From NCBI GenBank assembly GCA_026770705.1, contig JANJGN010000075.1, positions 1,426,001 to 1,490,000 of the forward strand: 64,000 bases of DNA, given 5' to 3'. Under the pieces are notes generated by a model, which was not told the DNA's origin, made no database searches, and worked only from the letters and a program-made list of their open reading frames with translations. Of the stretch, positions 7,594 through 63,714 are shown piece by piece (within the stretch, counting starts at the first letter, position 1; each line of letters starts with the position of its first letter). The stretch comes from Isurus oxyrinchus. Lineage: Eukaryota. The translations under genes were made by a program, and so were the position numbers.

Positions 7594-7624
7594 ATGGAGA
7601 CAGGCGTCTGGTTACTGCTCTTTG
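7594..7624 (+). CDS. Ig receptor exon 1, first half of the leader (METGVWLLLF)
   Basis: ATG in good context (aacATGG), 10 codons + 1 nt, then the donor gtgagt. Phase-1 join to 39108 gives the signal peptide METGVWLLLFVAFAVQMSVSQ. The link across 31.5 kb is inferred. Confidence 0.65.
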
Positions 7625-8329
7625 GTGAGTCGTGAAGCAATTTTATATTGACACTACTGGCTTTCTGGCCTGTGTGGTGTATGATTGAGTGGCTTGCAAA
7701 GGGAGAGTGAGACTGAGACCTGAGGTGTCCGCTCCCTGGTAGCTGAAAGAATTAAAGCGACAACTGGTTTTGTGTGCATCATATGAGGTTGGATTATCAG
7801 TGTGGAAACTTGACTGTGTTGAATAATCGGTGAGGAATGGTGTGGGAGTGAATCTGCTTTTCGTTTACGGGAGATGTGAGCGATTTAGATCAGAGCAGAG
7901 AGTAGAGAGCGTGTCTGCTGCTGATAGTCACCTCCTAGCACCAGTGCAAAACATCGATAAGTGGGTGTCAGCTGAGGATACTGACATCGCCATGTTCTAC
8001 ACTTTCTGTAATCAGCCTGTTTCAATGGAAAACAGTGGCCGAGATCAGACACCAAACAGGTCCTTCGCACTGAAGGACAAGGCGGAGAGGCACTTTCCCC
8101 AGAACTGTGTTCAAGGGTAACTTACCCCTTTCAGTTAAGGGAGAGGGCGAGATGGAGAAATCAAACACTAACGCTGCTGTTTGTGTCTGACTGTGTGTGT
8201 CACGAGTTCAGCTGGTTAGCTTGGAGCATCCCCTGAGGCCTTGAGTTGAACTGAATAATGTCCAGTCCATTACTGGAGAAACGGTGAATGTAACCAGAGA
8301 TGAAGCAATTCAGTGAAGTTGGGTGACTG

Positions 8330-8720
8330 GAGAAACTTGTCTTGTTTCGTTTATTGTTTTTCCTTATATTTTGGACGCAGCATGCTAAGGAGAAACCTTA
8401 CACAGATGTGTTCAAAATCCTATTGATATTTCAAAGACAGCACAGCGAGATCCTATCTCATTTCGCAAATGTGCCCGTAAATATCAATGAAAGAATTAAA
8501 ATATCTGGCTGAGTGGAAATTAGCAGATATATTCTCATGCTGAGGGTTGGATTGATCTGGAATAGTCTTTCTGTAAGAATGGTGGAAGCAGATTCGACCA
8601 GAACTTTGAGAAATAATTTGAATGGAACGGATTAGTTACGGATATGAGGTTGGGATATGTGGAGAAAGTTGCAGAGCCAGAATAAGTAGGATGGTGAATG
8701 GCCTCCATCTGCCCTGTAAT
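8330..8720 (+). mobile_element. Decayed CR1 3' end
   Basis: Ordered CR1 3' motifs: atgtgttcaaaatc, tgatctggaatagtct, ggtggaagcagattc, gaatggcctcc...ctgtaa. Confidence 0.5.
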
Positions 8721-11239
8721 GTGTCAAAATCCTCTTCTGTGCATTAAAGTAAGATTCACAGTCCATCATTTAGTTTTCGTTGTGTTTGAGATCTCCATCT
8801 AGGGGACATACTGACTCTACCAATGGGCCCGATTCCCCCGAGTCACTGCTGAGAATCTCGGCCGATATTCGCTCCGTTATACCTCCTCTCTGTTATTCTT
8901 CATGGATGCGTGCATGCGCAGTTGGAGGGTGAAGATCTGCCTCTGTCATCACTGTTAATTTCAGGTGACAGAACCCTTTCAGTGTCTGCACTCTTACAAG
9001 AACACCTAATGCTGTTGGAGGGCGGCTGTGGCGTTCACCTCCTGTCGGGAACATGCAACTACAGGAGAAATAGTGAGAGAAATTGGAGAAGGCTTGTTGC
9101 CAAAAATCATTGAATGTTTAATAATTGTGCTTTGGACACTTTGTGAACAAAACTCCCTGCTCCCCGCCCCAACCACGCTCCAAACCGAGGTTACGTCCCG
9201 GTTTCTTTGAACCAGCACTTTTCCACGTTAAAAATATTGACTTGTGCTATTCCGCCTTTGTTGATATTCCTGTTCCTTCAGTGCTGAACATTTTCCATGG
9301 TTTTCCATTCCTTTCCAACAGTGAAACTGAATTTGAGGCGCTTTGTGATATTTGTGATTGTGTGCAAAATATCTGGACACCTCAACATTACTGGAGAGTA
9401 GACATCTTACAATTAAACAGCAAAGGTTAAGTTTTTCAAAGACAGTGAATCAAGTATCTTCCACCCCAGGGCCAATCGCACAACTGTCAAAGGGAATAGT
9501 CAGAGCCCTCTCACTTGAAAGCATCAAGCTCTATCTTTAGAATATTTTCGATGTAAAGTTTTCACCGTCAGGACTACCAGTTCGGAAGGACATGCCAGCT
9601 TTTGCTAGTTCTATCTCTATGAATGTTGGTGGAATAGGGAATTTATTCTCTGATGTTAATGTAAGAAAAGCAGAAGCAGAGCAAGATACAGGCTGAACAG
9701 AGTTCCAAGAAATTCTATTCACTCTAGTAACTCATTCAGCCTTCTGGAGTTGAACATAATGCTTAGATATAGATCTGCACTGTGAGTAGACAGTAATGTT
9801 CTACAAACTGTGTTAGAAACGCTTTTGGGGCTCAGAGATTATCTCTGAATCTATCCATATGCAAACATCTTTTTTTTTTAAACTGAAGGGTGCTGTGTTT
9901 ATAAACTCCATTCTCTTTTCTTCCGAATTGTTCCTCCTTCTGTATAGGTGAGGAATCCACGAGGGGAGGAATATTAAATACTTCAATGCTTGGAACATGT
10001 CTAGAATCCACAATTCTCCTTAGAAAACGTCCATAATTCCTATGGCGTCTGCTATAAATGTTGTGGCTAATAGTAATTAACAGTTCTGAGCTTCGATTGA
10101 AAGCATAGCATGAGGATTCTTGAAGTACATTTTAATTCAATCGATTTGTGAATGTCCATGGTTATCATGCAATGTGCTTCATAGTTGCCCGATTTCCATG
10201 GAGAGGAGATGCTGGCGGCACCAATCAGCTCAGAGCTCCGAGGCCACCGAAGGAAGCCAAATATGGCGATACCACCTCAATGCCTGCCCACTCCGGGGAG
10301 CGAGCATGCGCTGTAGGAGTTTAAATTTCCCCAGCATCGCCACTGACCTCAGGTCAAGCAACCCATACAGTGTCTTCAGACAAAATGAACACTTAACTGA
10401 AAGCGTAGTTTGAACAAGCGCGAGTTTGTATGGTGAATCAGTATCATCGAAAGATAAGACCAAACTCTGGCGTAGAATATTTTCACATAAATTAGAAATA
10501 TTCTAATGCATTTATTTTGAGAGATTAATTTGTTCCTGAGTCACCCTCCTAACTGACAGTTGCTCAGTTCCTCTTTCTTAGCACTAAATCTTCTTCAAAT
10601 TGAATCCACTGCCTTCCGCTATGGTGCAAGTTCTATTACCACCTTCATTAACACAGATAGTTTTCAGCATGTTTGCTGATTTTTCTATCTCTTTCCCATT
10701 TGTCATCGAATTCCAGGAGCCTTGTGATGTATTGCAGCGTTTGTATGTTGTTGGGATATTTAAAAGAATAATGCAGTCAGCCCCCAGATCTAGGACCTTG
10801 CATTAACCCCACTTCCAACATTCACCCAGCAACGTATGAGAACGTAACTGAGATATGTATCTGCAGTGTGGGCGGAGACTAATGTCCATCAGGAAAGACA
10901 GGGCTTCATCTTTCTACTATCCTCTGAATCTGTCTCTCAGTCTCCATCTTTAACAACCCAAATTGCCACCATCAACAACTCCTTCCATTGCAGAATGGAA
11001 CTCCAGCACTTGCAGTGGACCTGCTGTTTGTTGATCTCTAAAGAAATTCCATATTTGAACACAAATTCCACCCAGCTGCTTTTATGGGTCTATCAGTCAA
11101 GGATTCACTGAATCTCAAATGGATGCTTTTTTTTAAAACATTTTTGTTTTAACTGCAGGGCGTGGGTACATAGAATCTAATAGTGAATAATTGGATTGCT
11201 CTTTGAAAGACCCACTCCAGAGCTCATTTGTCTGAAATT

Positions 11240-12260
11240 AAAAGGAACATAGAAGCAAGTGGCGGCCATTCAGCTCCTGGAGCCTGCTCTGCATTTCAAT
11301 TAGGCCCATCCTCTAGCTCACCGCTATTTTCCTGCACTGTCCCCATAACCCTTGATATCTTCTGAATCAGGAAACTTATCGATGATTGCCTTGAAGATGG
11401 TAAATGAATGAGCCTCCACTGCCCTCTGGGGTACCGAATCCCAGAACGTTACCATACTCTGAGTGAAGACTTCCCTCCCAACCTAAGTCCTAAATATCCT
11501 CCTGCCCACAACCCTGTAATTATTAGACTCTGTCCCCTTGTTTGTCATCACCCAGACAGGGATCCTATGTCCTGGCATCTGCCCTGTCGAGCCCCATAAG
11601 AATGTTGTGTGATTGAAATAGATCACCTCTCAGCCTTCAGAACTTTTGAAAACACAAGCCTAGTCTCCTCAATGTCTCTCAGAGGCAAATCCCGCCGTTG
11701 CAGGCATCACCCCTGTGAACCAGAGTGGATCTCGGTCTGTGGCAAGTGCATCATTCCTCAGGTAAGGAGGCCAGAACTGTACTTAATCCTCCAGATTCGG
11801 CCTTACCATGGCTCTGAACAAAAGCCGCATGCATTTTTTTAACTCCTGTGCAGTACTCATTTTGCAGTGAAGTTCAACATACCATTTGCTTTCCTAATTG
11901 ATTGCTGAATCTACATGTTAACTTTCAGTGACATATGGACAAGGACGCCCGATTCCACAGACTTCCCAATCTCACTATTTATGATACATTCTGCTTTTCT
12001 GCTTTCCCTACCAAAGTGGATACCATTACATTTTTACATTTTACCTTCCATCCGCCGTATTCATGCCCACCGGCTTTGCCCGTCTAGATCCCCTTGAAGC
12101 CTCCTTGCACCCTGCTCACAACTCATACTTCCATCTAAATGTGTGTCAACATAAAAAATTGTAAATGTTATCTATTTCCCTCACATCCGATTGATTGATG
12201 TAGATTATGAACAGCTGGGGCCCAGAAACTAAATGTTGCATCACCTCATTTTAGTCACTG
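11240..12260 (-). mobile_element. Decayed CR1 LINE (3' part)
   Basis: Reverse-oriented CR1 3' UTR (ggccattcagctcctggagcctgctctgcatttcaat), followed by typical antisense ORF2 remnants (ccagaactgtac, ccaaagtggatacc, gaacagctggggccc). Confidence 0.65.
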
Positions 12261-12919
12261 CCTGGGAAAGTGGGAATTGCACTGTTACCCTCAGCCTGAC
12301 ACATTTTAAATTATTTGCTTTGCTCGCGTTTTATTGTGTATTAAACAGATGTATTTCTTCCTTTCCGATTTCTCACCAACATTCACAAATTTTCCCACCC
12401 CTCCCCTTAAAATAATTCCTATTCCTCACTGCCACGTTGGGAAATATGCGCTAAAATTCATCATATATAAGTAGAATCATCTCAGTTTCCCCAGGTTCTC
12501 GACAGAACTGGAGCCTCTCAACCGGGTAATATTCCCCAAAAGTCAACTTAAACTTCTGTGCTCCGTGGAGAACATTGACAACTGGTGCATTTTCTCCAAA
12601 TAACTGAAACCACGATGATTAATTTCACGCATTGAGCTGCATCTGCTGCATTCCACTATTCCCCTGCTCCCCACTTTTAGCCTCGTTGGGCATTTCTCCT
12701 CACTGTAACCTGATCTTCAGTCTTGTCGTTCCAACTCCCCTGTCCTCACACCCATGACCATTGCGGGATTAGGTTTCCAGTGATACACAGCACGTCATTC
12801 CTTGCCCTCATTCTCAGTAAACAATTGGCAATCTGTTCTGTCTCTTAGAGGTTGAACCTTTGAAAGCATGACTTGCCAGCCTGTTCTGGCACGATTATTC
12901 ATTTAAAGAATTGCTTTGT

Positions 12920-15900
12920 GCCTGACAGTACACTTCAATTTAACACATTTAATGTCTTTGATGCGCCCAGTTACATCCAGTCATTGAGATGTTGTAAAAA
13001 ACTGGTACAATATTAAATATGTTTCTGTATTTAGAAGTCTCGATTCAATTTTGAAGATCAAAGAACCAGAGAACCAGAAACTGCTGCTGTTTCTCTGAGA
13101 GTGTTCATCCTCTTAGGACGGCTTAATATTATTTAAGCCTGAAGTCGTGTAAAAATGTTGATCTATATTATTGTGTTCAGTGTGTTCGACCAAACTGCTC
13201 ACTCTGATGTACTGTTCATGCCGTGAGGACTAAATTTCACTTGATCAAAAATGAAGGGTTCCAAGGCTGAACACAGGGATTTCCAGTTGCTGCATTTTCT
13301 ATCACTTCTCGCAAAATATCCTTTGAAATTACTTGCATTCACAGCAGAGAAACACACCGTTCGGCACAACAGCTTTATGATGGTATAGATATTCCAGACC
13401 ATCCTCCTCGCACCCTCGTTTATCCAATGTTACCACCCCTTCCTCATAATGCTTTTCCAAATAATTTCCCCCTGAAAATTATCAATTCTGTCACCCTCAA
13501 CTACTCCACGATGTACTATGTTCCACATTCTGCCCGCTTCCTGGATTAAGATTTATCTCCTGAATTCCTCATTGCATATGTTGAAGTATATTCTGATCTC
13601 TTGGTTTTATTGCTAGATACTGACTCTGTGACATGACTTGGAGAATAGTGAAATCACACTTCTCGAAATGGGAGCCTGTTGGTCTGCCCACAGCATGCAT
13701 AGGGCCGATAGTCTGGCTGGTTTTGGGTTTCCTATGTGACTTCCAGTCAGCTCAGTGCTCCAAAACAACCTAAAGGAAGCATCTGTCAAGTGTTGTGACA
13801 CAGCTGCTGATTATTCTCTGATATTAGTCCCTTGATTAGAAGTGGGCATGCACTGCAGGAGGCGAAGTACCTTTTGGGCGAGAAATCTACTGTCCTTAAA
13901 TGAATTGGCCTACATGTGAATCTAGGCACACAGCATTGTGGGTGACTATTAACAATGTGTTCTAAATGAGGGGAATTGTGGATGGGCAATAAATTCTGGC
14001 GTAGAGAGCGATACCCACATCTGATGAATGAGAAGGAAAAAAAAGTTTGAAGCAGCTCGAAAAGCCTGTTGTCCTGTCTCACCACTGATGTCCGTTATAA
14101 AATCAATACCTGATTTCAATCTGGATCAGGTGTTGGGGTGGGCTATCTACTGTGGATGTGGATGATTCAACAATGAGCCTCATAGCGTGATATGGAAAGT
14201 TCCATTGCAGGAAAACACCAGAACACAATTAGAACCATTCTGATTAATTATTTTGGGCTGTTCTGTTAATTGTATTTCAATGTCGTTACTGACAGTGACT
14301 AAGTTCCTGTTTCTTTGAACTGAACGCCCATCAATTTGAAACCACTCCCTTCCGCTCTAACGCCTACGTGCTATTAATATCATCTGTAATACTGGCCACT
14401 TTCAGAATGTTTGCATATTTTTTAGTTACTTTCCCAACTTTCAGCTGCTTTAGATATACCTTCTGTTAGTCGGGAGCTGGTATTTTTACCAGCTGTACAA
14501 GTAACTGCTTGTTGTGAATAATTCAGGCAGCGTTTACATTTGAAACTTGAAAGAACTCCACTTCCTCATTCAGCCAGCTGGAGCTGAGCATATCACTGAG
14601 ATATAGATTTGCAGAGTGGGCGGAGACTAATGACCAACAATGCAGCAGTGCATCTTTGTGTTGAGAATTCACCTCTCAATTAGCAGAATCCATTGTTTCA
14701 ATTCACTCTCAATGTCTCCGCCTTTCCACGTTGGAACTCTGACACTTGCGTTCACATTATGTTCCTTGGTCTGGACACGTGTGGGGATATGCAAATATGT
14801 TCAGTGTTTGCACACACAATCCACCCAGCTGCTCTTCTTTGAGTTTTACTGAAGCTTTTATTCGGTCAGAAAATGGACCATTTGAGATTTTTTAAAACCC
14901 ATTTCAGTTGAGTTCTGCACCTAAGGCAAAGGGGATACATTGACGATTGCCATTAATTGTTAATAGTGTTTGCAAATGGATACCCATTACAATAAATGAC
15001 TGGAGGTATTGAAATCTTATACCCGAGGAGGTCATTCGGCCCACCCTTTCTGTGCTGGATTTTTTATGAGCTGCTAAATATTGTACAATGCCCCAATTTT
15101 AATTTTGCTAACGTACAAATTATACATGTTGAAAAGCATGTAAAGTGGTGTTTGTAAAGCGCATATGGAATCATTTGCACCATAATTTCAATGTTTCCCT
15201 TCCAAACCTAAACATTCCATTCATTTTTAACCCTTTTTGTGAGATCATATGAACATTTGTTCATTAGAAATTGGAGCAGCGGAAGGCCATTCACACACTC
15301 GATCCTGCTCCGCCGTTCAATGAGATCATGGCTAACCTAATTGCAACCTCCCTTGTCTGGTCCCAGGCATCTTGCGGTCATTGTACATCACAGCGTTGAA
15401 TATATTAAATATCCCTGCCTTCACTGCTCCCTGATGAAGATTGATCCCATGAGAACAAATTCATCTTCGAATCCGTTCAACTCTGTGAATCCTTCTTTGT
15501 AAACTGTGCCAACTAATTCTCACTCCCCCCACAGGGTGAACATTCCCCTAGATTCTAGTCTGTAAAACACCTTCAATACCTTGTATGCTTCTATCAGTCC
15601 AGCTCCCAGGTTTAAAAGTGTGATTGAGTATTGGTCCTATTTTTTCAGCCTTTCCTTATCTCTTTGTCCAAGCTTTCAGCAAAACTTGTGTGAACTGCCC
15701 CTAATGACTACATAATATTAGTTACTTGAGGAAGCCAAAATGGCAGACAGTACTGTTGGTCTCACCAATGCTCTGCTCAAATGCAGTGAGATCCCTATAT
15801 TTAAACTCAATCCCATTTGCACCGAAATGACAATATTTAATTTTCCTTCATTGTTCCATGTTATATCTTCATTTCATTTCTCTGTAATTCATGAATAATG

Positions 15901-18900
15901 CTCCCAGATCCATCTCTGCTAGAGTATTGTGCGGACCCTCACATTGTATTTAAAATCCTGCTTTTCCATTTTATTAAACCATGTGGATTAGGACATATTT
16001 TCCCAGATTATACTCTATCTGATACATTTATGGCCAGCCACTCACCTGCTTGTATCTGTTGCAAATTCACCATATGCTTCACCAGTCTCCCCTCCGAAAG
16101 GACCAATTCCTAATTGATGATTTATCCTTCCTGTCTGATATAATTTTTATTAATGCTTTTTGTCCCTTTCTGTTTGTACACTGTTATATGATGCGCACAT
16201 CCTGAATCTGTTGGCATGATGCAATGTCCATTTGTGTTAAGTGTTTTAAAGGTGTTTTGTGGAATATTTAGTAACTGCTTCGCATTGGAAGTAGGTTACA
16301 TTAATTTGTATGAATAAATGAATGCAGGGAGATTCACTATGTAAGTCCACGTACATTACTGGTCTCTTATACATTAATTAATTAATGTTGTTTTCATTAT
16401 ATTCAATAAATGTTGCCACAATATATTGTCATCCAATTTGTTTTGACACATGTCGATCCATTGCTTTTCCAGACAAGGTTTAAATTGCTCTTTTTTTCTG
16501 AGATGATGTGTTTCTGACCTGAAACAACAGTTTTCCATTGCAAACATTTGTTCTCAGTCTGAAATTCAGCCAGGCACTTCAGCAAATTATTGATCCGTTA
16601 TTATTTTTTTTTCCACTTTGCATTAGGTCCATACGTGAAGTTTGAAGTTGGTGTTCGTTCACCAATCATGCTTGTTACTTTGAATTGAAACACTAATAGA
16701 GTTTCATTTTTAGGTTGCACTTTCTCTTTCGGCCTGCTTGATTTAGGCACATTCTTGAAATAGATATCTGTATAGATTGCCGAGAATAATACCCTTCAGT
16801 TAACACATTGCAGCAGCTGCATTTTATGGCCTACATATATCCTGTTACCTGCTTTGGTTCCAATAGTTAGTGCAGCGAACCATTCAATAATGGAGTACAA
16901 GGACACAGACAGAAGGACCGTCAGAGACAGATGCACACCCAATGACAGACATGCAGACAGTGACAGACACACAGACAGTGACAGACACAAGAAAAGGGAT
17001 AAGCATAGAAACAGATTTTAAAGAAACAGAGAGACACAGAGACGGTGACAGGCACACATACAGGGACAAAAACACTGATGCGACAGGCGCACGGATTGAG
17101 GAATAAATAAACACACAGGCAGACTCACAGAAAATGACAGAGACGCTGACAAAGGCAGACAATGGTACAGCAACAGAGGCACAGAGTGTGACAGGCAGGC
17201 ACACAGAGAAACAGTATAAGTAACATGGAGACAAGCACTGTGACAGACACACGAAAGACACAGAGTCAGCAACATTCACACAGCCAGAGACCATCACACA
17301 GCCAGCGACAGAATCACCAACAAGGATAGACACGCTGACAGAAACTGGTATGCAGAGAGTGTCAGACACACATACAGTGACAGAAACAAAGGCAGTGAAA
17401 GACATACAAAAAGTGCTAGAAATGCAGACAGTGACAAACATCGAGAGAGGTGGGCGCACAGAGTGAAGAAGCACAGACAGGGAACAAAAAAAAGACAGGG
17501 ACATGCACACAGAAAATGAGAGGCACACAGGCCCTGACAGACACAAAGACAATGAGAGAAGCCCAGACAGAGTCAGGCACATCGACAGGGACTGTCACAC
17601 ACATTGAGACATTTACACATGTCACTTATCCACAGGGAAACATTTTTGACCTAACTATAACCTGTGATTCAGATACATTTCTGAGAATCATCTCTTTAGT
17701 TTGTTCTCTGTCATTTTTTTTCTAACAACTAGATATCCATGTTTTTTTTTTAAACTCATATTTCACTCTTCCTGCTTCCTGATGTCTACATGTATGTGAA
17801 CACTCTTCTCAATTTCAGATGTTAGGCCACTGACCTACAGTTCCCTGCTCACTGCCTTCTTCCTTTTCTAGGCAATAGATGTTAGAATTCCGATTTACCA
17901 AGCAGCTGATAACTTAAAGAACCTAGGGAATTTTGGAAGATTACAAACAGTGTAAACTTCACTGTCACTGGAACTCCCTTCCTAACAACACTTACCTACA
18001 CGACAGGGACTGCAGCTGTTCAAGAAGGCGGCTCACCAGGGGCTTCCCAAGGGTCAGTTAAGGGTTGACGATGCATGTTGGACGAGCGAGCGATGCCCAC
18101 ACTTGGTAAATGAATAAAACATATATATCACAGCTGTTCCTTGTTTTAAGACCCCAGGAAACAGACCATCGATTGCAGAAGACTTGCCAGCCTTTCAGTC
18201 CCTTGGTTTTCGCATTTTTTTTTTCTCCAGGGATTGTGGTTGTTTTAGCTTCCTCCTTCTTCATTCTCTGCCATTCTTTGGGTGCCTTCGTTGCATCCAC
18301 TACCAGGTTCTTGATGCCCAACATTAATTCGCCAGTCTCCCCCTCTCAGGGACCAATGCACATTTTGGCTTTTGCCTTAATTTTCTCAAACTTGTTTAAG
18401 ATTTTTCTTCAGTCTGTAAATAGACGATGACTTGGAGCTCGAATCCTCAAGCCGTTGGTGGATTATAATGTGTCTGCTTATTAAAAACTTCTGAGCTGCT
18501 TTTTGGAATGTTTAATAATTGATTTGTATTTGAAGCAGCTTACATTGAATAGTTTGACTAATTGAGTGCAGGATTATTCAGTCTGCTTGTCTGCACTACT
18601 GGCGGTGTTGTAATGCGGAATTAATTATTTAAACTATTCAAAGTATTTAATACAAATTCTCACAATGTATTTTCATGCAATGTGTTTTAACACATGACTG
18701 TCTCTGGACGATTTTTTCTACTCTCAATGGTTAAATTGTTTTGTGCCTCAGATGATGTGTTTCTGCTGTGAAACCGCTGGTTTGCGTTAGAAACACTCTC
18801 TGTCTCTGTGAAATTCGCACAGTTACATTTCCAAATGTTTCACCTGTTGATATTTAATTTTCATTCAATATCCATTTAGTTGATATGCGAAGTGTGATGC

Positions 18901-20460
18901 ATGTAACAGTTAACAAACTACTCTTTTTATGGTGAATTGAAGCACTTATCAGTTCTTATTATTTAGACAGCATCTTCTCATTTAGTCGCCAGGCGTTAGT
19001 CACATCATTGAGATAGAGATCTGTATAGGGGCGGAGACTAATGTAAACAATTTGCAGCAGCTTCTCTTTCTGCTGAAATTTCATCATGTACCTTCCTGAG
19101 GTTTGTTTTTTGTTCAACTTCAAAACTGCTAATCAATGAATTCGTTCCATTATGCTGCTCACAGACATAGACATGGACTCAGATGGAGGAAGGTACGCAG
19201 ACAGAGACAAACACATACACAGAGTCAGGCACATAGACTGAGATACTGACACAGAGTCAGAAACACCGACAGACACACCGACACACGTACAGGCAGAGAG
19301 ACACATGAAGATACATACACACAGGGACAGACTGACAGAGAGAGAGGAGGAAAGAAAGAGAGGAATGCAAATGCCGAGGCGTACAGGTAGATGCACTGTC
19401 AGACATAGACACACACACAGACAGAGAGAGACATAGGGAGAGAAACAAACGCAGACAAAAGGCATACAAGCAGACACAGACAGCGACAGATACACAGACA
19501 GAGACATTTAAACAAATATACCATAACCACAGAGAACATTATAAATTCCTCCAGATCCTCACGCATGGTTCCTTCTCTGTGAGCTCCGTGGCCTCCTACA
19601 GCTGAATCCTGAGGAGAAATGTCTAATGATGACAGTCGAGAGATAGAGTAAGGGTTGAAACTGGAGGCATAGATCAACCTCATCCTGCGTCCTTCCCCCA
19701 ATCCAGCATAAGTGGGATCGGAATGCCAGTGGATTCCCCTCCAGACTCCATTCCTGCTTGTGAACTTATCCAGACAGCACCACGTTTCCCCTGCTCCCCC
19801 TCTGCTCCTCCAAAATCCAGGTCATCTACTTTCCACCCCTCCCCCCAATGGATGCAATTTTTCCTTATTCGCATGATCAATCCCATATATGATTTGGAAA
19901 CCTCCAGCATGTTTCATCATAGCCTCCTGTGTTCTGTATCAGTCTGTGTGTCTGTCTCAGTCTGTGTGTCTGAGTTTTAGTGTCCCATTAATGAATTTCT
20001 CGCAATAAGGAGAACGATCCCAGCTTGTCCTACCACTCCACATAACTGAAGCCCCCTCATCCCTGGTACCAATGTAGCCAATATCCCTTCCAGCCTTTCC
20101 AAGTCTTGGACATCCTCCCTAAATTTGACGCAAGAATTGGACACAATGTCCCAGATGACGCCTAGCTGATAATTTATGCATTTTCAGAATGGATTCCTCT
20201 ATTCTGTACATGTTAGCGTTTATGTTTAGCATCACAATTACTGCAGGATAGTTTTTCCACATTTTCTTCAACGTTTGCATCGGAACATCCGAACAATGAG
20301 CAGGAGTAGGCCATTCGGCCCCTTCTGCCTGCTCTGACATTTAATAAATTCATGGATGATCTGATAGTAACGTCATCTGAATCCCTCCTACCCCGATAAC
20401 GTATCACACCCTTGTTTACCAAGAATCTATCCACCTCTGCCTTAACAATATTCAAAAACT
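12920..20460. repeat. Higher-order segmental repeat, unit 1 (modules A-B-C)
   Basis: Starts cttcaatttaacacatttaat...cattgagatg, which recurs at ~20470 and ~28412. Carries cassettes at 14597, 16756 and 19009. Boundaries approximate. Confidence 0.75.
16895..17620. repeat. Degenerate (AC/AG)n microsatellite tract
   Basis: Built from acag/acac/agag units. Paralogous tracts at ~19160-19510, 24250-25040, 26878-27440, 33220-33885 and 35165-35335. Confidence 0.9.
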
Positions 20461-23400
20461 GACATTACCCTTCATTTCAACACATTTAATTTGTCTTATG
20501 CGCCAAAATGCATTCAGACATTGAGATGTTTGAAGATGCTGGCGCAATACTAAATAAGCTTCTGTAATTAAAAGTCTTGAATTCAGTTTTGATGATAAAT
20601 GAATTTTTGAGAAACAACAGCTGCTGCTGTTGCTCTCACAGTCCTGATGCTTTAATCTGGATCAGATAATGGACTGGGGAATTCAACGTGAACAGGATCA
20701 TTCATCAGCGACAGTCATCGGGAGATTTGGAAAGTTAAATTGGAGAAAAACGCTTGAAAACAATTAGGGAACATTTTGATGAATGTATTTTCTGTTGTTT
20801 TGTTAATTATAATTCAGTTTCGTTACTGCAGACACTAAGCTCCTGTTTATTTGAACTGAAGCCCCATGAAGTTGAACCTGCTCCTTTCCGCTCTAGTGCC
20901 TAAGTGCCGTCACATTCCTCTTTAATACTGGCCACTTTCGGAAGGTTTGCTTATTTTTCAGTCATGTTCCCAGCCTTAAGCTGTTTTCAAAATACCTTCT
21001 CTTAGCTTTGAGCTGGTGTCTTTAGCAACTCTAGAACTAAAGAGTTATCTTCAATAATTCAGGCAGCGTTTACATTTGGAAACTTAAATTAACTCCACTT
21101 CCTCATTCAACCTGCGAGAACTGAGCATGTCACTGAGATACAAATCTGCAGGGTGGGCGGAGACTAATGACCAACAATACAACAGTCTACCTTTGTGTTC
21201 AGTATTCACCTCTCAATTACCATATCCCATTGTTTCAGTTCCACTGTCAATGTCTCCAACTATTACATATTGGAGGTCTGACACATTCACATTGTATTTC
21301 TTGGTCTGGACACATGTCCGGATCTGCAAAGATGCTTAAAGTTTGCACACACAGTACAGCCTGTTGGTTTCATTTGGCATTCTCTGAAGCTTTCATTTGG
21401 TCAGTAAATGGAATTTTGTGAGATTTTAAACTTATTTCAGTTATTTTTTATGCTTAAGTCAAAGGGCAAACATTGGCGCCTCCCATTAATTTGTGGTAAT
21501 ATTTGCAAATGAAAACCCAGTACAACAAATAAAACTAGAGGTATTGAAATCTTAGACCAGAGGAGGCAATAGGAACCGTCCTTTCTGTGCTGGACTTTGT
21601 AATTGCTGCTAATTATGTGCAATTTAAATTTTGCAAAGATATTTTTTTCCAGTTGAATTGTATGTCTTTGTAAAGTTCATATGGAATCATTTTGCACCAC
21701 GCTATCAATACCCCTCTGACAAAGTTAAACATTCCATTCATTTTTAGACCCTTATGTGAGATCATATGATCATTAGGTCATTAGAAATGGGAGCAGGTGT
21801 AGGCCATTCAAACACTCGATCCTGCTCTGCCATTCAATGAGATCAAGACTGATCAAATTGTGGCCTTCCTTGTCTGGCCCGCATGCACCTTGACGTCTTT
21901 CCACATCACAGCTTTAATATATTAATTGTCCCAGCCTCCACTGCCATTTGAAAGAAGATAACTCTTGTGGAAACAAATTCCTCTCTGACTCCGTTCCACT
22001 GGGTGAACCCTGTTTTCTAAACTATTTCTTAATCCCCCCACGGGGTGAACATTCTCCTTGTATTTAGTCTGTAAAATACATTCAATATCTTGCATACTTC
22101 TGCAAGTCCAGTTCTCAGGTTTCGAAGTGCGATTGAGGATTGAACCAATCTTCTAAGCCTTTCCTGATCTCTTCAGACAAGCTTTCAGTGAATTTGTGTG
22201 AACTGCTCCTAATGATAATATACCGCTCCTTACGTAAGGAGGCCAAAGTGGCAGACAGTACTGTTGGTGTGATCTCACCAATGTTCTGCACAATTGCAGT
22301 GAGGTTCCCTACATTAACGCTCAATAGCCATTGCCCAAAGTGACAAGATTCCATTTTCCTTCATCGTAATTTGTTGCACGTTGTTTGTATCTCTCTGAAA
22401 TTAATGAGCAAGGGCAGCCAAACCCCGCTATAGTAGAGAATTTTGCAGCCTCTCTAACTGTAGTTAATATTCTGATTTCCTATTTCATCCCGCCATTTGG
22501 AAAAGTTCATATTTTCCCAGATTTACTCCATCTGACAAATTGATGGCCAGTCAATCACCTGATTGTATCTGATTCAGATTCACGATATGCTTCTCACAAC
22601 CTTCTTTCCTGCTCATCTTTGTAGCCTTGCCAACTGCGTTACAGCGCACACGCCACATTCTCAGCCAAGCATTCACATGGTTGGTAAATGTTTGAAGCTC
22701 CAGCAAAGATCACTGTAGCACTCCAATCGTTACACCTTGCTGACCTGAACATGGTCAATTTTCCCCTCCTCTCGGGTTCAAGTTAGTTTTCCAGTCCTCT
22801 AACCTTGCTCAAATATCACCCACAACAGCAAGAGCTCTTATTTTGTGCGCTGGTTTTTTAATGCATGGTGGGTTATCAAACTACGTTTGCAAATTGAAAA
22901 TGAGGACACCTGCTGATTCCCCTTTGCCTAGTCTGCTTGTTGGACCCTCAAAGAGCACCGACATTTGACAAACTCCATTTCCCTTAAAGACAATCTTGTT
23001 GACACTGCTGGATTGTAGCATGATTTTATTACTGTCCTGCTGCTACACCCTTAGTAATGGATCTGAATTATTCATAAGGTTAGATATTAGGCAATCGGCC
23101 TATAGTTCCCTGCTGCTTCTTGCCTTAATACTTTCTAGAATGTAGGTGTTACAATTCCAAATTCCAAGCAGCAGAGAGCTGCCCAGAGTCGAGAGAATTT
23201 TAGAGGATTACAAACAATGTATCCATTGTCACTGTTGTCGTCTCCTTTAGGACCCCAGGATGCTGGTCATGATTCCAGGAGGCTTGTCAGTCTTTATTTC
23301 CATTAGTGCTCCCAGTACTTCATTCTCCAGTGATTGTGTTTGTTTTAGCTTCCTCCCTCTTGATTTTCCTCCATGCCTTGGATGATTCTTGTGTCATCAA

Positions 23401-41987: not shown

Positions 41988-42281
41988 TTAAACTATCAAA
42001 ACCAGTGATAAGACTTGATCAATGGACTGGGGTTTATGTTTTCGGAGAGAGGGTCACCATTACCTGCACTGTGACGGCAGATGATCGGGATAAAATTTTC
42101 TACATTTACAGAGGGGACCAGAATCTGTCCCTCTCACAGTTCACCACAAAGTACAACATTCGAACAGCTCGTGTTACCGCTGAAACAGATGGAGAACAAT
42201 ACAGCTGCGCATATAACGTTTCTGTCAATGGTCGGTGGATAGATTCCCCGGTGAGCGAGCCTGTGATGGTGACTGTAACAG
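41988..42281 (+). CDS. Ig-domain exon D1a (C2/I-type, LRC/FcR-like)
   Basis: 294 bp, cag/gtcagt, phase 1-1, open. KLSKPVIRLD...GERVTITC...FYIYRG...YSCAY...SPVSEPVMVTVT, with two Cys 46 residues apart. Confidence 0.9.
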
Positions 42282-44185: not shown

Positions 44186-44479
44186 CTAAACTATCAAAAC
44201 CAGTGATAAGACTTGATCAATGGACTGGGGTTTATGTTTTCGGAGAGAGGGTCACCATTACCTGCACTGTGACGGCAGATGATCGGGATAAAATTTTCTA
44301 CATTTACAGAGGGGACCAGAATCTGTTCTTCTCACAGTTCACCACAAAGTACAACATTGGAACGGCTCATGTTACCGCTGGAACAGATGGAGAACAATAC
44401 AGCTGCGCATATAACGTTTCTGTCAATGGTCGGTGGATAGATTCCCCGGTGAGCGAGCCTGTGATGGTGACTGTAACAG
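44186..44479 (+). CDS. Ig-domain exon D1b (duplicate of D1a)
   Basis: 294 bp, cag/gtcagt, phase 1-1, open. Differs from D1a at 7 nucleotides. Confidence 0.9.
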
Positions 44480-46241: not shown

Positions 46242-46426
46242 TGCATTGTGACTGGAGGTGTTCGGGAGATAATCTTCTATTTTTATGAAGATGATGCACT
46301 GCAGTACTCTAGCCAAAGTGGCACAAATGACAATATTGGAACATTCCCGCTTAATGGTAGAATTTCCATCTGGGGTCGGCACCAAACTTCTCGAAGTAGC
46401 GAGTCCGTGGCCGTGAAAACCATTAC
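46242..46426 (+). pseudogene. Truncated Ig pseudo-exon (D2/D4-like)
   Basis: CIVTGGVREIIFYFYEDD...GTFPLNGR-ISIWGRHQTSRSSESVAVKTIT, then gtgagt. The 5' part and acceptor are replaced by satellite, and the second-Cys segment is deleted. Confidence 0.85.
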
Positions 46427-47569
46427 GTGAGTGACAGAGAATCGAATGGTTAATACTGTTCACCAGGCTTGGCATATTCACAAATTCAGATCCCTGCTTC
46501 AAAATCAAACGGTCAGTGATTGGGAAGAGGAGTTTCCAAGAAAGCCGTGACTCCATTGCTCAAGTTCTGACTTTCTCTCTGAGAGAAAGGCCCCGAATTC
46601 AACAGCTGGTCATCAACTACCACTGCAAGTGCTGAGACGGGAAGGGGAGGAAAGAAGGAGGAGGCTGTGAAGGGACAGTCAGCATTGAAGCAATGTGTCA
46701 CTGGGGGAGGAGGGGTTGCCCATTGCTGGGTGACGTCACGGTCTAACTCGGGATTGGGTAATGATCCTTCTGACATCATACTGGGTCCGAGTGCCCAACC
46801 CTCACCATTGAAGCGGTCACACAAGAGAGAAACCACAACGCAGAATCCAACTGCGGCGGGGAAAGATGTACCGTCCAAACCTTTCATCGTTTGGCTTTCA
46901 TACTCCACATTGATGCTGTAACTTGGCACCTTTGTTGTGGACTATATTCACTGATGTCCTTATCTAGACTTTAGCACGCTACACTAAGTAAGAAGGTTGA
47001 ATAATCAACTCCCATTCCAGACTGAGCTCAATAATCCAGGATGTCTCACTCACACAGAACGACAGTGCTGAGGGAGTGCTGCACTGCCTGAGGTCGATGT
47101 ACACACACTGTGATTTGAGTACCATATTGCAAACTGACACTTCCCCGCTGTAATCACTGAGGTAGCGCTGCTCTGTCGGAGGTAGGTGTATATACTCCAG
47201 GATTTGAACACAATAATCCAGGCCAACACTAACCACCCACACCCCTCGCCCTCCCAGTGCCAGAACCGAGGGTGTGCTGCATTGGCGGAGGTAGATGAGT
47301 GCACGAATGACCCTTAGCTTCAGCCCCGAAGTCCTCCGACACAGTGGGCGAAAGGGGGGGATTTGTAATTTCAGATGTGCTGTGTTTCAAATGAGAAAAT
47401 GTAAACAAAGTCTGGATTCCCGCCTCTCAGGTATCTGCATGGGGCCTCACTTGCCTTCACTTCACAGAGCATCAATCCGTAATTCTGTCCGCTTCATGTC
47501 ACCCAATATCAATCCATCAGAACACCTCACTCACAAGGTGCACATTATCCGGTCATTGTCTCATTATTG

Positions 47570-47768
47570 TTAATGTGTAAAGATAATCAACCTTTGTCCT
47601 CTTATCAAATCATCACAAAGAACAACACTGGAACATTCACTGTGCCCGTTACAAACCAAGGAGGGTGGGTGAGGTGGCGGTTGTGGGGGGGGGCGGTAAC
47701 ATTGTATATAAAGGGCCGCCGTCAATGGAGTTACCATCCCAGTAAATTTGCGAATGTCATTGTAGCAG
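47570..47768 (+). pseudogene. Half Ig pseudo-exon
   Basis: KDNQPLSSYQIITKNNTGTFTV...ANVIVAG, then gtgagt. Disrupted by a G-rich expansion; no 5' half. Confidence 0.7.
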
Positions 47769-49128: not shown

Positions 49129-49416
49129 AGCCGCTAAGAAAACCACTGATATCGCTTGATGAATCGACATGTTTGTATGTAATTGGAGAGACGGTCACCA
49201 TGACCTGCACTGTGACAGGAGATGATCGGGATAAAACCTTCAATTTTTACAAAGATGATGCACGGAAGTACTCTAGGCGAATTGCCACCAATGCTGGAAC
49301 ATTCCGGGTTACTGGTAGAAGTAGCGAAGGGCGATACCAATGTGAATACGTAATTTCCATCAGAGGTCGGCATTTAACATCCCGAAAGAGCGAGGCAGTG
49401 GCTCTGACTACGACAG
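49129..49416 (+). CDS. Ig-domain exon D2
   Basis: 288 bp, cag/gtgagt, phase 1-1, open. EPLRKPLISLD...GETVTMTC...FNFYKD...GRYQCEY...SRKSEAVALTTT. Confidence 0.88.
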
Positions 49417-50721
49417 GTGAGTGACAGGGAACAGAGATTGTTAATACCTGTACTCACAAGGTTTGGTATATTCACAAATTCAGGTCCCTGCATCAAAATG
49501 AAACGCTCAGTGATCGGGGAGAGGAGATTATGGGAAAATCTTTGACTTCATTGCTCAAGTCCTGACGCGTTCCCTGAAAGAATAGATCCTGAATTCACCC
49601 ATTGGGCATTCAACGACCAGTGCTAGTGTTGAGATGGGAATGGTAGGAAAGCGAGAGTAGGTTGTAAGGGGACAGTCAGCAGCTGAAGGATTCAGCCACT
49701 GGAGGTGGGTGTATCTAATGTTGGGTGACGTCACTGTCAAGCTCTGGATTGGGCGATGCTCTTTCTGACATCATACTGGGATCGAGTTTCCAGCCCCGGC
49801 CATTGAGGCGGTCACAAAATACATAAAACACATCCCAAAACCAGCACGTGGTAAGGCATGATGTAGCGTCCGATCCTTTCAACTTTCACTTTTATTGTCT
49901 ACTATTATGCTGGCAATACTTGCATTTGTCTTGGACTACCGTCATTCCTGTACTCATCAAGAATATAGCACGCTACTCTAAAGTCATAAAGTTATCTGAT
50001 CAAGCGCCATTTCAGACTGGAGATCTATCACCCAGGTCGACATTCTCCCAGGTGCTAGTACAAAACATGGGCTGCACTGTCGGAGGTAGATGTGCAATAC
50101 CTTGCACCTGAGCTCCGTAATCCTACACTATAATACCCCACTCCCAATATTGAGGGAGTGTTCCACTGTCGGAGGTAAATGTATTCATTCCTGGACTTCA
50201 GCTCCATAATTCACGCTGGCACTCCTCTGGTGCCAGTACTGAAGGCTTGCTCCTCTCTTATAGATAGATGTACATACTCTAGGGCTTGAGCTCCCACAAT
50301 CCAGGCTGAACATGCCCTCGGTGCTGGAACAGAGGGTGCGTTCCACTGTCGGAGATGGATGCATTTACTCCATGAATGAAGGTCCCTAATCCAGGCCGAC
50401 ATTCCCCAGTGCCAAGACTGAGTGAGTGCTGAACTGTAGGTGCTATATGAATGCCCTATTGGACGTTAACGCCAGGATCCAAGTTCCCTGACAGAGTGAG
50501 GGTAATGTGCGAGAGTTGTAATTTCAAAAATACTGTGTTATAGATGAGCAAGTAATGAACGTCTGGAGGCTCGGCTCTCAGTTGTCTGTACGTGGTCCCA
50601 CTTGCCTTTACCTCACAGAACATTAATCGTAAGTCCTGCCCTTTCTCCTGTGTCCAAATATGAATCCATCAGAACACATCACTCACAATCTGCACATTAT
50701 CCGACCATTGTCTCATTACCG

Positions 50722-50907
50722 TTCTTGTGCAAAGATAATCAACATTTCTTCTCTTATCAAATCGTCACAAAGGACAATTGTGGAACATTCAAACATACAA
50801 ACCAATGAGTGGGAGGGGGCGGGGGTAACATTGTAAATATAGACCCTCCGTCAAGGGAAGGGAGTTAGAATCCCAGCTTAGTGAATCTGTGAATGTCACG
50901 ATAGCAG
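50722..50907 (+). pseudogene. Half Ig pseudo-exon (paralog of 47570-47768)
   Basis: KDNQHFFSYQIVTKDNCGTF, then a stop, then SQLSESVNVTIAG ending at the weak donor gtgatt. Confidence 0.7.
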
Positions 50908-51768: not shown

Positions 51769-52062
51769 AGCCGTTAAGAAAACCAGTTATAACACTTGAT
51801 CAATGGACAGGAGTGTATGTAATAGGGGAGACGGGGACCATGACCTGCACTGCGACTGGGGATGATCGGGAGAAAATCTTATCTTTTTAGAAAGATGACG
51901 AACGACAGTATTCCTGGCAAATTGACACAAATGACAATACTGGAACATTCCCGGTTAGAGGTAGAATTAGCGAAGGGCTATTCCAATGTCAATACAGAGT
52001 TTCCGTCAGAGATCGGCATCTAACATCTCCAAAGAGCGAGGCTGTGGCCGTGACTATCACAG
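51769..52062 (+). pseudogene. Full-length Ig exon D3 with an in-frame stop
   Basis: 294 bp, intact cag/gtgagt, phase 1-1. TAG at 51888-51890 sits at the position that is Tyr in paralogs (FYKD); otherwise colinear with D2 and D4. Confidence 0.88.
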
Positions 52063-53624: not shown

Positions 53625-53918
53625 AGCCGCTAAGAAAACCAAAGTTAACACTTGATCAGTCGACAGGGGTGTATGTTGTAGGGGAGATGATCACCATGAC
53701 CTGCACTGTGACTGGGGATGTTCGGGAGAAAACCTTCTACTTTTACAGATTTGATGCACAGCTGCACTCATGGCAAATTGACACACATGACAATACTGGA
53801 ACATTCCGGGTTAATGGTAGAAGTATCAACGGGCGATACCAATGCCTATTCGGAATGTCAATCAGAGGTCGGCAACTAACATCCTCAAAGAGTGAGGCTG
53901 TGACTGTGACTGCCACAG
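53625..53918 (+). CDS. Ig-domain exon D4
   Basis: 294 bp, cag/gtgagt, phase 1-1, open. EPLRKPKLTLD...MTC...FYFYRF...GRYQCLF...SSKSEAVTVTAT. Confidence 0.9.
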
Positions 53919-55586: not shown

Positions 55587-55880
55587 ATCCGCTAAAAACC
55601 CCAGTGATATATCTTGATCAGACCACGGGTGTGTATGCAGCAGGAGAGACGATCAACATGACCTGCACCGTGACTGGAGATAATCGAGAGAAAATGTTTC
55701 ATTTTTATAAAGGACATCAACAGCTGCCCTTTAATACAACCAGCAGAACTTCCAAAACGTTCACATTCCCGAATAGCGGTCTAAGCCACAGCGGACAATA
55801 CCGATGTCAATATAGTGTTACCGTCCAGAGCAGGCAGTTCGATTCTAAACAGAGCCAGGCTGTTACGGTGACCATAGAAG
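55587..55880 (+). CDS. Ig-domain exon D5
   Basis: 294 bp, cag/gtgagt, phase 1-1, open. DPLKTPVIYLD...NMTC...FHFYKG...HSGQYRCQY...SKQSQAVTVTIE. Confidence 0.9.
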
Positions 55881-57691: not shown

Positions 57692-58051
57692 GTCTTCCCG
57701 AACCATACATATCCGTGGATCTAGTGCAGTTGTTCAGGGCAGGAATGTTACATTTCACTGTACAAATCCCGGGGCAATCCTACCATCACGTTTTACCTAC
57801 ACAGATAAGGTGATGCGAATCACGATGGGTTCAAGTCTCCTGCTTCAGGGATCAATTCTGTCACCTTCACCATCAAGAATGTCGACTGTGCCTGATTTAT
57901 CCCAATTTTGTTGATTTGGTTTTCATTTAAAAGATTATCAAGAATGTCGATCACTCTGAGATAGGAATTTATAACTGTCGGTTTGATGCACTGATTAACG
58001 GAGGAAATCTATCCTCGGCTCTGAGTGACCCTATGCACATCACTGTAATAC
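57692..58051 (+). pseudogene. Membrane-proximal Ig pseudo-exon of a distinct LILR/A1BG-like type
   Basis: Reconstruction: LPEPYISVD/SSAVVQGRNVTFHC.../TFYLHR*G...VTFTIKNVDHSEIGIYNCRF...SALSDPMHITVI. It has two frameshifts, a TAA, a 51-bp insertion and no canonical donor. Confidence 0.85.
57886..57936 (+). mobile_element. 51-bp insertion with 14-bp TSD (probable extremely 5'-truncated LINE tail)
   Basis: atcaagaatgtcga is duplicated at 57872-57885 and 57937-57950. Removing the insert and one copy restores the frame IKNVDHS. Confidence 0.8.
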
Positions 58052-58062
58052 TGTGTGCTGTT

Positions 58063-59506: not shown

Positions 59507-59599
59507 AAAATAATCCTGTTGCTCTGGCTGCTGGTGTTGGTTCTGCTTTGGGTCTGATTCTTCTCCTTGCTCTCTTGGGTGTCTGCCTCTGGATAAAAG
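59507..59599 (+). CDS. Transmembrane exon (ENNPVALAAGVGSALGLILLLALLGVCLWIK)
   Basis: 93 bp, cag/gtaggt, phase 1-1. Hydrophobic span of ~25 residues with no charged residue. Confidence 0.9.
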
Positions 59600-60787: not shown

Positions 60788-60815
60788 GGAAGAAGAAAAG
60801 CAATATGGAATCCAG
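60788..60815 (+). CDS. Cytoplasmic exon 1 (GKKKSNMESR)
   Basis: Acceptor tttccttctcag and donor gtgaga, phase 1-2. Basic stop-transfer residues follow the TM. Confidence 0.8.
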
Positions 60816-61945: not shown

Positions 61946-61989
61946 GAACGCGGTGCCCTCTGGAGAGCAAAACAACGAACACCTGACAT
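61946..61989 (+). CDS. Cytoplasmic exon 2 (RNAVPSGEQNNEHLT + first base of Tyr)
   Basis: Acceptor tctattgtttgaag and donor gtgagt, phase 2-1. In frame with both neighbouring exons. Confidence 0.75.
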
Positions 61990-63039
61990 GTGAGTTCAGA
62001 TTGAAATTCCCACAATCAGAATTGTCTTTTGTGCTCAAAAATTTGTCAGCGCGTCATGAATAATAACCGGCAGGGAATGTTGAGCAGTTTGCAGAAAACA
62101 TTGAAAATGAAAGCTTAAAAGTTGCAGAGTAGGAAGTGTATCAGGAATTGCAGTTATACAAATTGCTAAATGAAGCGACGAAAGTTAACTCTCCTTTCAC
62201 GCTCCAAGCAGGTGATTTCGGAAGGGATAGAATTGAAAAGTCAAAAGGTTAAGTGGAATGTGCGGCAAAACTAGTACCGAAAACAATGCTGGTCGGCGTA
62301 GGATAAAAACACATGTACAGAGACAGTTGAGTGAGTCTAAAATATTTACCAGGATGATCGAAAAATGTCTAACATTCAGCAGGGGTTTAGAATCGCTGGG
62401 CCTCATTGCTAATGAAAATGGGAGGCTGAGGGATTGGCTAATCGAGTTCTTTGAAACACAATCATATTTCTAGTTGTGGGAGATAGAAAAATCAGAGGCG
62501 ATGAACACGGTAGCTCCCTCGTGAAGCAATAGTGTGATATGAATGTAATAATCTGAAAGAAAAAGACGAAAGACTTGCATTCATGAAATAATTTACACAA
62601 CCAATGGACGCCTCCAAAGCGCTTTGCAATTGTTATGGATCTGATTTTCCAGAGAGGTTAATCATTAGAAACACCAAACTTAATTTACGGACTGCAGCAG
62701 CAGTCACATGCTTCCATCAATCTCCACAACTCGGAGAACTCCCATTCTAAGGTCCCCCGGGATCATTTTCATCATCCAAGGTAGCAGATGGAGCCTTTCT
62801 TTGCAGATCGACGCAGCAGTGCAGCGCCCCCTCAGTGCTGCACTGTTATGCCAGCTTTGTTTTTCGTCCGGAAACCCGGGCGTTGGACTTCAACTGGGAA
62901 TGTTTACCCAGATATGCTGGGATTATGGAACACGCCCTGGGAGTGGTCGACCCGAAACATTTAGAAGTTTTTAAGAGGAGGCTGGGTGAAATATGAGGCA
63001 TAAGTGAGGTTTAAACTGACTGACTTGAAGCAAAGAAAC

Positions 63040-63320
63040 CTAGAATATAGGAGCAGACGTAGATCATTCGGCTCTTAAAACCTACTCCACCATTCAATCT
63101 GATCAAGGCTGATTACTTATCTCAACTCCATACTCTCTCTTTCGCTCCATAACACTTGACACTTTTAGATTCTATAATTCTATTTCCTTCTTAAATATAT
63201 TTAGTAATTTGTCCTTCACAGCCATCTGTGGGAGAGCATTTCAGAGCTTCAACGCACTGAGTGAAGAAGTTTCTCCTTTGCTCAGTCTTAAGTGGTCTCC
63301 CCTGTGCGTTGAGCCTGTAA
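63040..63320 (-). mobile_element. CR1 3' end
   Basis: Minus frame LKTEQRRNFFTQCVEALKCSP matches the CR1 terminal motif RRNFFTQRVV. Confidence 0.7.
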
Positions 63321-63673
63321 CACCTTGCCACATCATATTGAATTTGTGATGCTGGTAAGCATAGAGAGCCACTCAGAGTCAATCTGCTACTCATTCCCGG
63401 GGAAAAACCTGCAGGATCTATTTCCTGGATTGAGAAGAACATGGGGCTGAAAGACCAATTTTGGAAGTGTGTTCGCTCCATCACGAGCTATCTAAGGCCT
63501 CTTTGTGCTGGTTGAAGATTAGTTGCTCCCATCTGTTGGCAGCGAGGGTTACTTAATGAAGCATCCTCGAGAAAACAGACCTACCATAGACATCAAACTC
63601 TTCCCTGAAAGGGACAAATGTTGTCAGCACTTACTCATCAATGTTATTTTTAACATGTTTTGGTTTTATTTAG

Positions 63674-63714
63674 ACGCTGATCTTATCCTACAAACAAATC
63701 CGAAGGGAGAAGAT
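63674..63714 (+). CDS. Cytoplasmic exon 3 (YADLILQTNPKGED); completes the ITIM; gene continues beyond the window
   Basis: Acceptor ggttttatttag and donor gtaagt, phase 1-0. T+AC makes Tyr, giving LTYADL. No stop codon is reached. Confidence 0.8.

Follow-up and report, generated by a model that had tools for sequence, protein, structure and literature searches.

The locus and its gene model

The DNA analyzed here, a 64,000-nt window of the Isurus oxyrinchus genome (contig JANJGN010000075.1; all positions are those of the window, forward strand), contains a gene for a predicted inhibitory receptor with immunoglobulin (Ig) domains (Table 1). Its 11 exons join into an open frame of 578 codons (31+33+294+294+288+294+294+93+28+44+41 = 1734 nt) with zero stop codons in a base-by-base check, all ten introns are bounded by GT and AG, and a further GT donor lies directly after exon 11. 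The exon phases, in order, are 1,1,1,1,1,1,1,1,2,1,0, the Ig exons being phase 1 on both sides. The predicted protein consists of a 21-residue leader, five Ig domains (D1 to D5) that lack the C-strand Trp, an uncharged transmembrane (TM) segment and a tail containing LTYADL, a candidate immunoreceptor tyrosine-based inhibitory motif (ITIM).

An earlier reading of this DNA (hereafter the original prediction) had proposed the same model, and its exon lengths, GT-AG sites, phases and stop-free frame were all reproduced exactly, as were the uncharged TM segment and LTYADL. The five Ig domains that it described are borne out by Pfam Ig models, which match each of the five Ig exons (best E per exon, 6e-11 to 6e-4); D3, D4 and D5 score above the curated Pfam cut-off, and D1 and D2 below it. 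The proposed domain signature, FxFYK/R on the C strand and SxxSxxVxVT at the end of the domain, holds broadly, the departures being FYIYR in D1 and D2 and VALT at the end of D3. What the original prediction overlooked is that five broken Ig exons lie between the intact ones.

Table 1. The receptor gene, its broken Ig exons and the repeat array of its first intron
Feature	Position	Strand	Remark
Exon 1, coding part (leader, 10 codons + 1 nt)	7594..7624	+	sole exon-1-like site of 88 candidates
Exon 2, 33-nt leader mini-exon	39108..39140	+	one copy within window
Ig exon D1	41988..42281	+	Pfam Ig match; 85% identity to Carcharodon P0005
Ig exon D2, recent 2.2-kb tandem duplicate of D1	44186..44479	+	7/294 nt differ
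Ig exon D3, open, unpaired extra Cys	49129..49416	+	use in mRNA uncertain
Ig exon D4, open, 7/45 subtype-conserved positions altered	53625..53918	+	use in mRNA uncertain
Ig exon D5	55587..55880	+	sister of Carcharodon P0005 d4 (100/99); model nearest CHIR-AB1, PirB D1
TM exon, uncharged (inhibitory type)	59507..59599	+	
Cytoplasmic exon 1	60788..60815	+	
Cytoplasmic exon 2	61946..61989	+	last base is first base of ITIM Tyr codon
Cytoplasmic exon 3	63674..63714	+	completes LTYADL
Broken Ig exon, D3/D4 type	46242..46426	+	5' part and acceptor lost, internal deletion
Broken Ig exon, second type	47468..47768	+	splice sites kept; frameshifts, stops
Broken Ig exon, second type	50619..50907	+	frameshifted duplicate of 47468-47768
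Pseudo-exon, D3/D4 type	51769..52062	+	full length, AG/GT intact, one in-frame TAG (51888-51890)
Broken membrane-proximal Ig exon	57692..58050	+	two frameshifts, TAA at 57806, no canonical donor where expected
Old tandem array in intron 1	10700..37520	.	units about 6.5-9 kb, 65-77% identical; no Ig, TM or leader remnants detected

Exon 1 and the first intron

The first intron is 31,483 nt long, and the junction that spans it is the least obvious part of the model. With a leader profile (a position-specific scoring matrix built from eight paralogs), exon 1 scored 18.6, as against 1.9 for the runner-up among 88 candidates of the form ATG+30 nt+GT, and the 21-aa leader shares 57-76% identity with six full-length leaders of paralogs. 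Profile searches of the 64-kb window detected no second exon 1, no second mini-exon, no second TM exon and no TM exon of the activating type, and no family exons were found hidden in intron 1. Since there is a single leader-profile site, a single mini-exon and a single TM exon, the 7624/39108 junction is likely to be real. Alternatively, exon 1 could belong to another gene of a cluster, or the window could fuse two genes, as might be imagined from an intron of 31.5 kb that holds a large old tandem array and from the fused model (P0002) that RefSeq contains for the same family. The lone exon 1, mini-exon and TM exon and the absence of an activating-type TM exon from the window argue against this explanation, which we consider very improbable.

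Turnover of Ig exons and the likely content of the mRNA

Profile searches indicated that 5 of the 10 Ig exons inside the gene are broken, and the Ig region evidently grew by tandem duplication. One of the broken exons is of the membrane-proximal type, the family's most LILR-like domain. This exon also carries a 51-nt insert flanked by 14-nt direct repeats (57872, 57937), an arrangement that resembles a target-site duplication; no second copy of the insert was found in the window. Given the five broken exons, the 578-codon mRNA is hypothetical, and a five-domain transcript would be only one possible splice path through them.

The gene is the predicted 1:1 ortholog of a great white shark RefSeq model, P0005 (Carcharodon carcharias, automatically named 'Fc receptor-like protein 5 isoform X2'). 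All 25 proteins retrieved with a five-domain profile are from sharks and rays, and D5 is 87% identical to its Carcharodon counterpart and 76% identical to that of Cetorhinus, values that make a lamniform source very probable. In a tree restricted to shark domains (71 of 157: every domain of Carcharodon and Cetorhinus, plus three outgroup proteins and six exons of the window), D1 and D2 grouped with P0005 (99/96), and D5 was sister to the final domain of that model (100/99). Like the Isurus gene, P0005 joins D5 directly to the TM segment, an indication that loss of the proximal exon preceded the separation of the two species. P0005 differs in having D1-type domains (three complete, one partial) but none of D3/D4 type, in lacking a leader and in stopping before the ITIM. 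Its lack of D3/D4-type domains makes a three-domain isoform of the Isurus gene plausible.

A full-length receptor requires that the pseudo-exon at 51769-52062 be skipped, because it contains an in-frame TAG. Two findings weigh against a straightforwardly productive gene: the splice sites of this pseudo-exon are as good as those of D3 and D4, such that its skipping is assumed, and dN/dS (the ratio of nonsynonymous to synonymous substitution rates), at 0.56-0.90 in comparisons of D3, D4 and the pseudo-exon with one another, does not separate live exons from dead ones. The locus could therefore be decaying or non-productive, with the stop-containing exon spliced in, so that the transcript would either undergo nonsense-mediated decay or encode a short D1-D3 protein that is secreted. 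Such decay would fit the proportion of broken Ig exons, the intact splice sites of the pseudo-exon and the long terminal branches of D3 (0.24) and D4 (0.30), which resemble that of the pseudo-exon (0.23) in the shark domain tree, and it has a parallel in chicken CHIR, with pseudogenes reported at 41 of 103 loci (PMC1458963). However, the leader, D1, D2, D5, the TM segment and the tail are intact, with 82-87% identity to the Carcharodon ortholog where it covers them, and the long D3 and D4 branches may merely reflect missing orthologous domains. In a neutral simulation, moreover, D3 and D4 each stayed open in only about 1-2% of runs with an indel rate that is rough and probably too high (35-39% when stops alone were counted). 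Among 45 subtype-conserved positions, 3 are altered in D3, 7 in D4, 9 in the pseudo-exon and 0-8 in the domains of named proteins. On balance we regard a non-productive locus as improbable and a functional gene as the better reading.

The cytoplasmic tail

LTYADL fits the ITIM consensus (I/L/V/S)xYxx(L/V) given in PMC6182393, and its Tyr codon is split by intron 10. Type I design with Ig domains, an uncharged TM segment and an ITIM-consensus motif, the features by which an inhibitory paired receptor is recognized, are all found in this gene. The tail aligns with those of eight paralogs that bear two Tyr motifs and run on to T-[LI]-Y-A-x-V or S-T-Y-A-V-V, the former of which fits the consensus of an immunoreceptor tyrosine-based switch motif. 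Because all eight paralog tails extend past the last exon in the window, a second Tyr motif is expected beyond base 64000, and a last exon encoding it probably lies there. Among fish receptors, the tails of catfish LITRs are described as recruiting SHP-1/2 via ITIMs (PMC4810170).

Read-through of the intron 10 donor (61990-62070) would produce a short tail without Tyr that starts like the C-terminus of RefSeq model P0010, and the ends of both P0010 and P0005 match parts of this read-through sequence. These matches could represent ITIM-less isoforms or annotation artifacts.

A family of paired receptors in sharks and rays

The best matches to the gene are shark and ray proteins, and they include paralogs of both signaling types, in agreement with the original prediction that it is a chondrichthyan paired-receptor member of inhibitory design. 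Named members occur in at least eleven genera (Carcharodon, Cetorhinus, Mustelus, Scyliorhinus, Rhincodon, Heptranchias, Pristiophorus, Pristis, Mobula, Hypanus and Hemitrygon) under a mixture of automatic RefSeq names, among them 'FCRL5', 'IGSF1-like', 'KIR3DL1', 'LILRA6' and 'HSPG2-like'. Among 52 named proteins, some of which are isoforms of one gene, 21 have tails with Tyr motifs (at least two motifs in 17, one in 4), 14 have an uncharged TM segment and no motif (several of these being truncated models), and 12 have no detected TM segment. The remaining 5, from three shark genera, are of the activating type that the original prediction had suggested looking for: their TM segment carries an Arg, starts with P-I-R-L and is accompanied by a C-terminal Glu and a short tail. 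None of these forms is encoded in the window. The genes seem to be clustered, since a single longest contig is listed for seven Carcharodon proteins (2.72 Mb) and another for five Cetorhinus proteins (5.39 Mb).

Outside the cartilaginous fishes, our searches returned no named amphibian, reptile or bony-fish members, with the exception of Perca proteins (P0170-P0172, P0174) in which SRCR domains are combined with Ig domains related to those of the shark family. By eye, the N-termini of some unnamed matches, such as P0049, P0095 and P0101, are SRCR-like as well. No protein named LITR was among the 25, 37 and 23 matches of three word-limited searches. The list of distant relatives is incomplete, in that 58 of the 144 proteins scored had no domain reaching 35 bits and were omitted.

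Relationship to LRC and FCRL receptors

Single domains of the family lie nearest to receptors of the leukocyte receptor complex (LRC). The D5 model, with a pLDDT (predicted local distance difference test) of 92.9, was built from an alignment in which D1-D4 and P0143 fell off the D5 columns, so that the fold rested on the other 20 rows. Its closest structure is CHIR-AB1 (Z 14.7, rmsd [root-mean-square deviation] 1.5, 91 aligned), tied with PirB D1 (13.9), with NKp46 and LAIR1 next; of 998 aligned chains, the first 15 all belong to the LRC, and the best Fc receptor reached a Z of 12.2. The structure of the proximal domain of paralog P0024 was likewise closest to LILRB4 D1 (Z 15.2) and CHIR-AB1 (14.7), ahead of FCRLA (11.9) and FCRL5 (11.2). 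At the sequence level, a ten-member profile of the proximal domain scored 41.4 bits with PirB D1, 33.9 with LILRA3 and 32.9 with CHIR-AB1, while its 45.2 bits with FCRL5 were a sum over nine domains, none of which passed alone. A weaker distal-domain profile gave 22.1 for CHIR-AB1, 16.4 for the unrelated CADM4, 15.7 for the best FCRL5 domain, 14.9 for LRIG1 and 11.1 for the best PirB domain, and among named proteins from outside the cartilaginous fishes, a broad profile matched a bat LILR/PIR best. The E-values given by Foldseek varied too little for a ranking of families.

The leader exons also bear on this question. A leader split across two exons, here 31 and 33 nt, is a feature common to LRC and FcR-like genes, and those of KIR measure 34 and 36 nt. 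The leader of KIR3DX is encoded by exons 1-2 (PMC8562567). The 30/21-nt pattern of FCRL/FcR genes is absent from the Isurus gene; it is documented for FCRL1-6, FcgRI and FCRLB and for only a fraction of Xenopus XFL genes (PMC2413239).

Several results weigh against an LRC relationship. Whole-protein sequence searches put FCRL5 first, and two unnamed related groups score 349 and 184 bits with FCRL5 versus 96 and 96 with PirB. Neighbors in the ESM Atlas are mixed (MILR1/allergin-1, FCRL, HIDE1, IGSF1-like, LILRA6), and the FCRL5 chain used for structural comparison spans residues 20-282 only, so that D4-D9 of FCRL5 did not enter it. The strongest LRC signal comes from a domain that this gene has lost. 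Finally, the five Arg-TM paralogs all combine the Arg with a C-terminal Glu, and all five lack the Asn (at -3) of the NxxR motif. That motif is itself not diagnostic of the LRC, as it is shared by Xenopus FCRL and SLAM receptors (PMC6557307).

These results leave room for a receptor with the same inhibitory function that belongs instead to a shark branch of FCRL/LITR, or to a separate old lineage mixing FCRL and LRC features. In addition to the whole-protein ranking of FCRL5, such a placement would be in keeping with the two unnamed groups, which are large, multi-Ig receptors that share the distal-domain signature of the shark family (hhalign 99.3%) yet lean strongly to FCRL5, with the Arg-bearing TM segments described for Xenopus FCRLs (PMC2413239) and with the many RefSeq proteins named 'FCRL5'. 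On the other hand, the best distal score of FCRL5 is about that of the unrelated CADM4 and LRIG1 and below that of CHIR-AB1, the mini-exon has 33 nt versus 21 nt in FCRL1-6, and the structures favor the LRC. We therefore judge an FCRL/LITR or mixed origin to be unlikely, if by no means negligible, and the Isurus gene to be built like an LRC inhibitory receptor and probably related to the LRC. The two unnamed groups may link the shark family to the tetrapod families. Of the LRC/FcR-like placement made in the original prediction, the proximity of single domains to LRC receptors is upheld, whereas the choice of LRC over FCRL is likely rather than proven.

Three known systems illustrate how far the resemblance goes. 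Chicken CHIRs (CHIR-B, CHIR-AB1) are the best structural match of D5 and tied best for the paralog proximal domain, and they too are clustered paired receptors with many decayed copies (PMC1458963). CHIRs have 1-2 Ig domains versus 2-10 in the shark proteins, with 20-29% identity, and some bind IgY (PMC6557307). LILRB/PIR-B, LAIR1, NKp46 and KIR share the split leader, one exon per Ig domain, the ITIM tail and paired Arg-TM forms. The proximal domain of the shark family matches PirB D1 and the distal domains are weakly LILR-like; the activating TM motif is NxxR in mammals and P-I-R-L in sharks, and the proximal domain is lost from the Isurus gene. FCRL1-6, Xenopus XFL and teleost LITR, for their part, have the long tandem Ig arrays without C-strand Trp, the uncharged TM segment and the Tyr-motif tail, but FCRL scores per domain are at background, and the structural Z is lower for the FCRL domains compared.

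Proposed function and significance

The gene anatomy, the uncharged TM segment, the ITIM-consensus motif and the existence of paralogs of both signaling types are observed. We conclude, with moderate confidence, that this lamniform gene is functional and encodes an inhibitory leukocyte receptor, and that it comes from an elasmobranch family of clustered, paired Ig-like receptors whose relatives among tetrapods are most likely those of the LRC (CHIR, LILR/PIR, LAIR1). The function, ligand and family placement of the gene we infer. In the mechanism that we propose, the distal Ig domains would bind a cell-surface or soluble ligand, and a Src-family kinase would phosphorylate LTYADL and the second motif (T-[LI]-Y-A-x-V in paralogs). 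By analogy with established ITIM biology, SHP-1/SHP-2 would then bind the tail and damp the signals of activating receptors, including those of the Arg-TM paralogs, which are presumed to couple to an adaptor of the FcR-gamma type. Turnover of the ectodomain by tandem exon duplication and decay would yield mRNAs encoding three to five Ig domains, with broken exons skipped.

LRC ligands span MHC (major histocompatibility complex) class I, Ig Fc and collagen (PMC6557307), and this variety means that the fold does not choose among them. Using LRC biology as a prior, we tentatively place a self ligand such as MHC class I level with an other or microbial ligand; immunoglobulin Fc would be a less likely candidate, and collagen or matrix a doubtful one.

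The time of origin of the LRC, its first function and its bony-fish counterparts are described as unclear (PMC6557307), and a 2014 survey reports no FCRL, FcR-gamma or C2-only LRC homologues in sharks and places the origin in bony fish (PMC4016189). Our data suggest that receptors of this kind go back as far as the jawed vertebrates themselves; if so, a CHIR/LILR-like paired family in sharks and rays would date activating/inhibitory pairs of Ig receptors to the jawed-vertebrate ancestor. A 2021 paper in Immunogenetics (Wang, Belosevic, Stafford) reportedly identified two FCRL-related genes and one LRC-like gene in the elephant shark. If this is correct, a claim to the first LRC-like gene in cartilaginous fish would fall, and the expanded elasmobranch paired family would stand.

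The original prediction called such receptors poorly characterized. This holds in that our literature search, whose coverage excluded most subscription journals, found no paper describing the elasmobranch family; it needs correction in that the proteins are already annotated automatically in RefSeq, and earlier work has probably covered part of this ground. Taken singly, the gene has an ordinary design, and its value lies in an apparently undescribed elasmobranch family and in its bearing on the age of the LRC. The family provides concrete candidates for shark natural killer or myeloid self-recognition receptors or antibody receptors. Expression of 'fcgr1a-like, fcrl3, fcrl5' has been reported in bamboo shark B cells (PMC11372145), and such shark 'fcrl5/fcrl3' calls may rest on automatic names.

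A bolder extension, which we offer as speculation and think rather unlikely in its entirety, is that the family descends from a primordial LRC (or an LRC/FCRL ancestor), that its ITIM/Arg-TM split pre-dates the divergence of cartilaginous and bony fishes, and that the missing receptors of sharks for MHC class I, or for the Fc of IgM, IgW or IgNAR, are among its members, with exon skipping and read-through of the intron in the ITIM codon generating ectodomain variants and ITIM-less decoys.

Other features of the window

No other genes were recognized in the window; those flanking the LRC include TTYH1, LENG8/9, RPS9, TSEN34, MBOAT7, CNOT3 and PRPF31 (PMC6557307). Five other long open reading frames had zero Pfam matches, Rfam had zero matches across the 64 kb, and 84 stop-free segments (from 300 candidates near the repeated motif described below) yielded one weak match to a domain of unknown function, below the cut-off. 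In the repeats of the intron 1 array, gaps in multiples of three made up only 17/90 and 43/246; a codon-periodicity test on them was abandoned, its positive control having failed too.

The array contains a 15-base GC-box-like motif nine times, always on the + strand and nowhere else in the window (0.04 expected), within a conserved stretch of about 150 nt; the array showed no recognizable trace of coding exons. Also in intron 1, positions 8015-8122 show a 69% match to residues 291-326 of P0002, the fused Carcharodon model, a sign that non-coding sequence downstream of exon 1 may be conserved in a paralogous locus. Two decayed coding-like segments on the minus strand (11860-12129 and 36293-36547) match the non-Ig tail of model P0021 and are probably remnants of a long interspersed nuclear element. 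Upstream of the gene, a short element occurs in three copies (4187-4322, 5914-6052 and 6072-6177) that are 96-97% identical, two of them adjoining and inverted, and is probably a young short interspersed nuclear element. At the other end, a G-rich minisatellite occupies 63727-64000, up to the window end.

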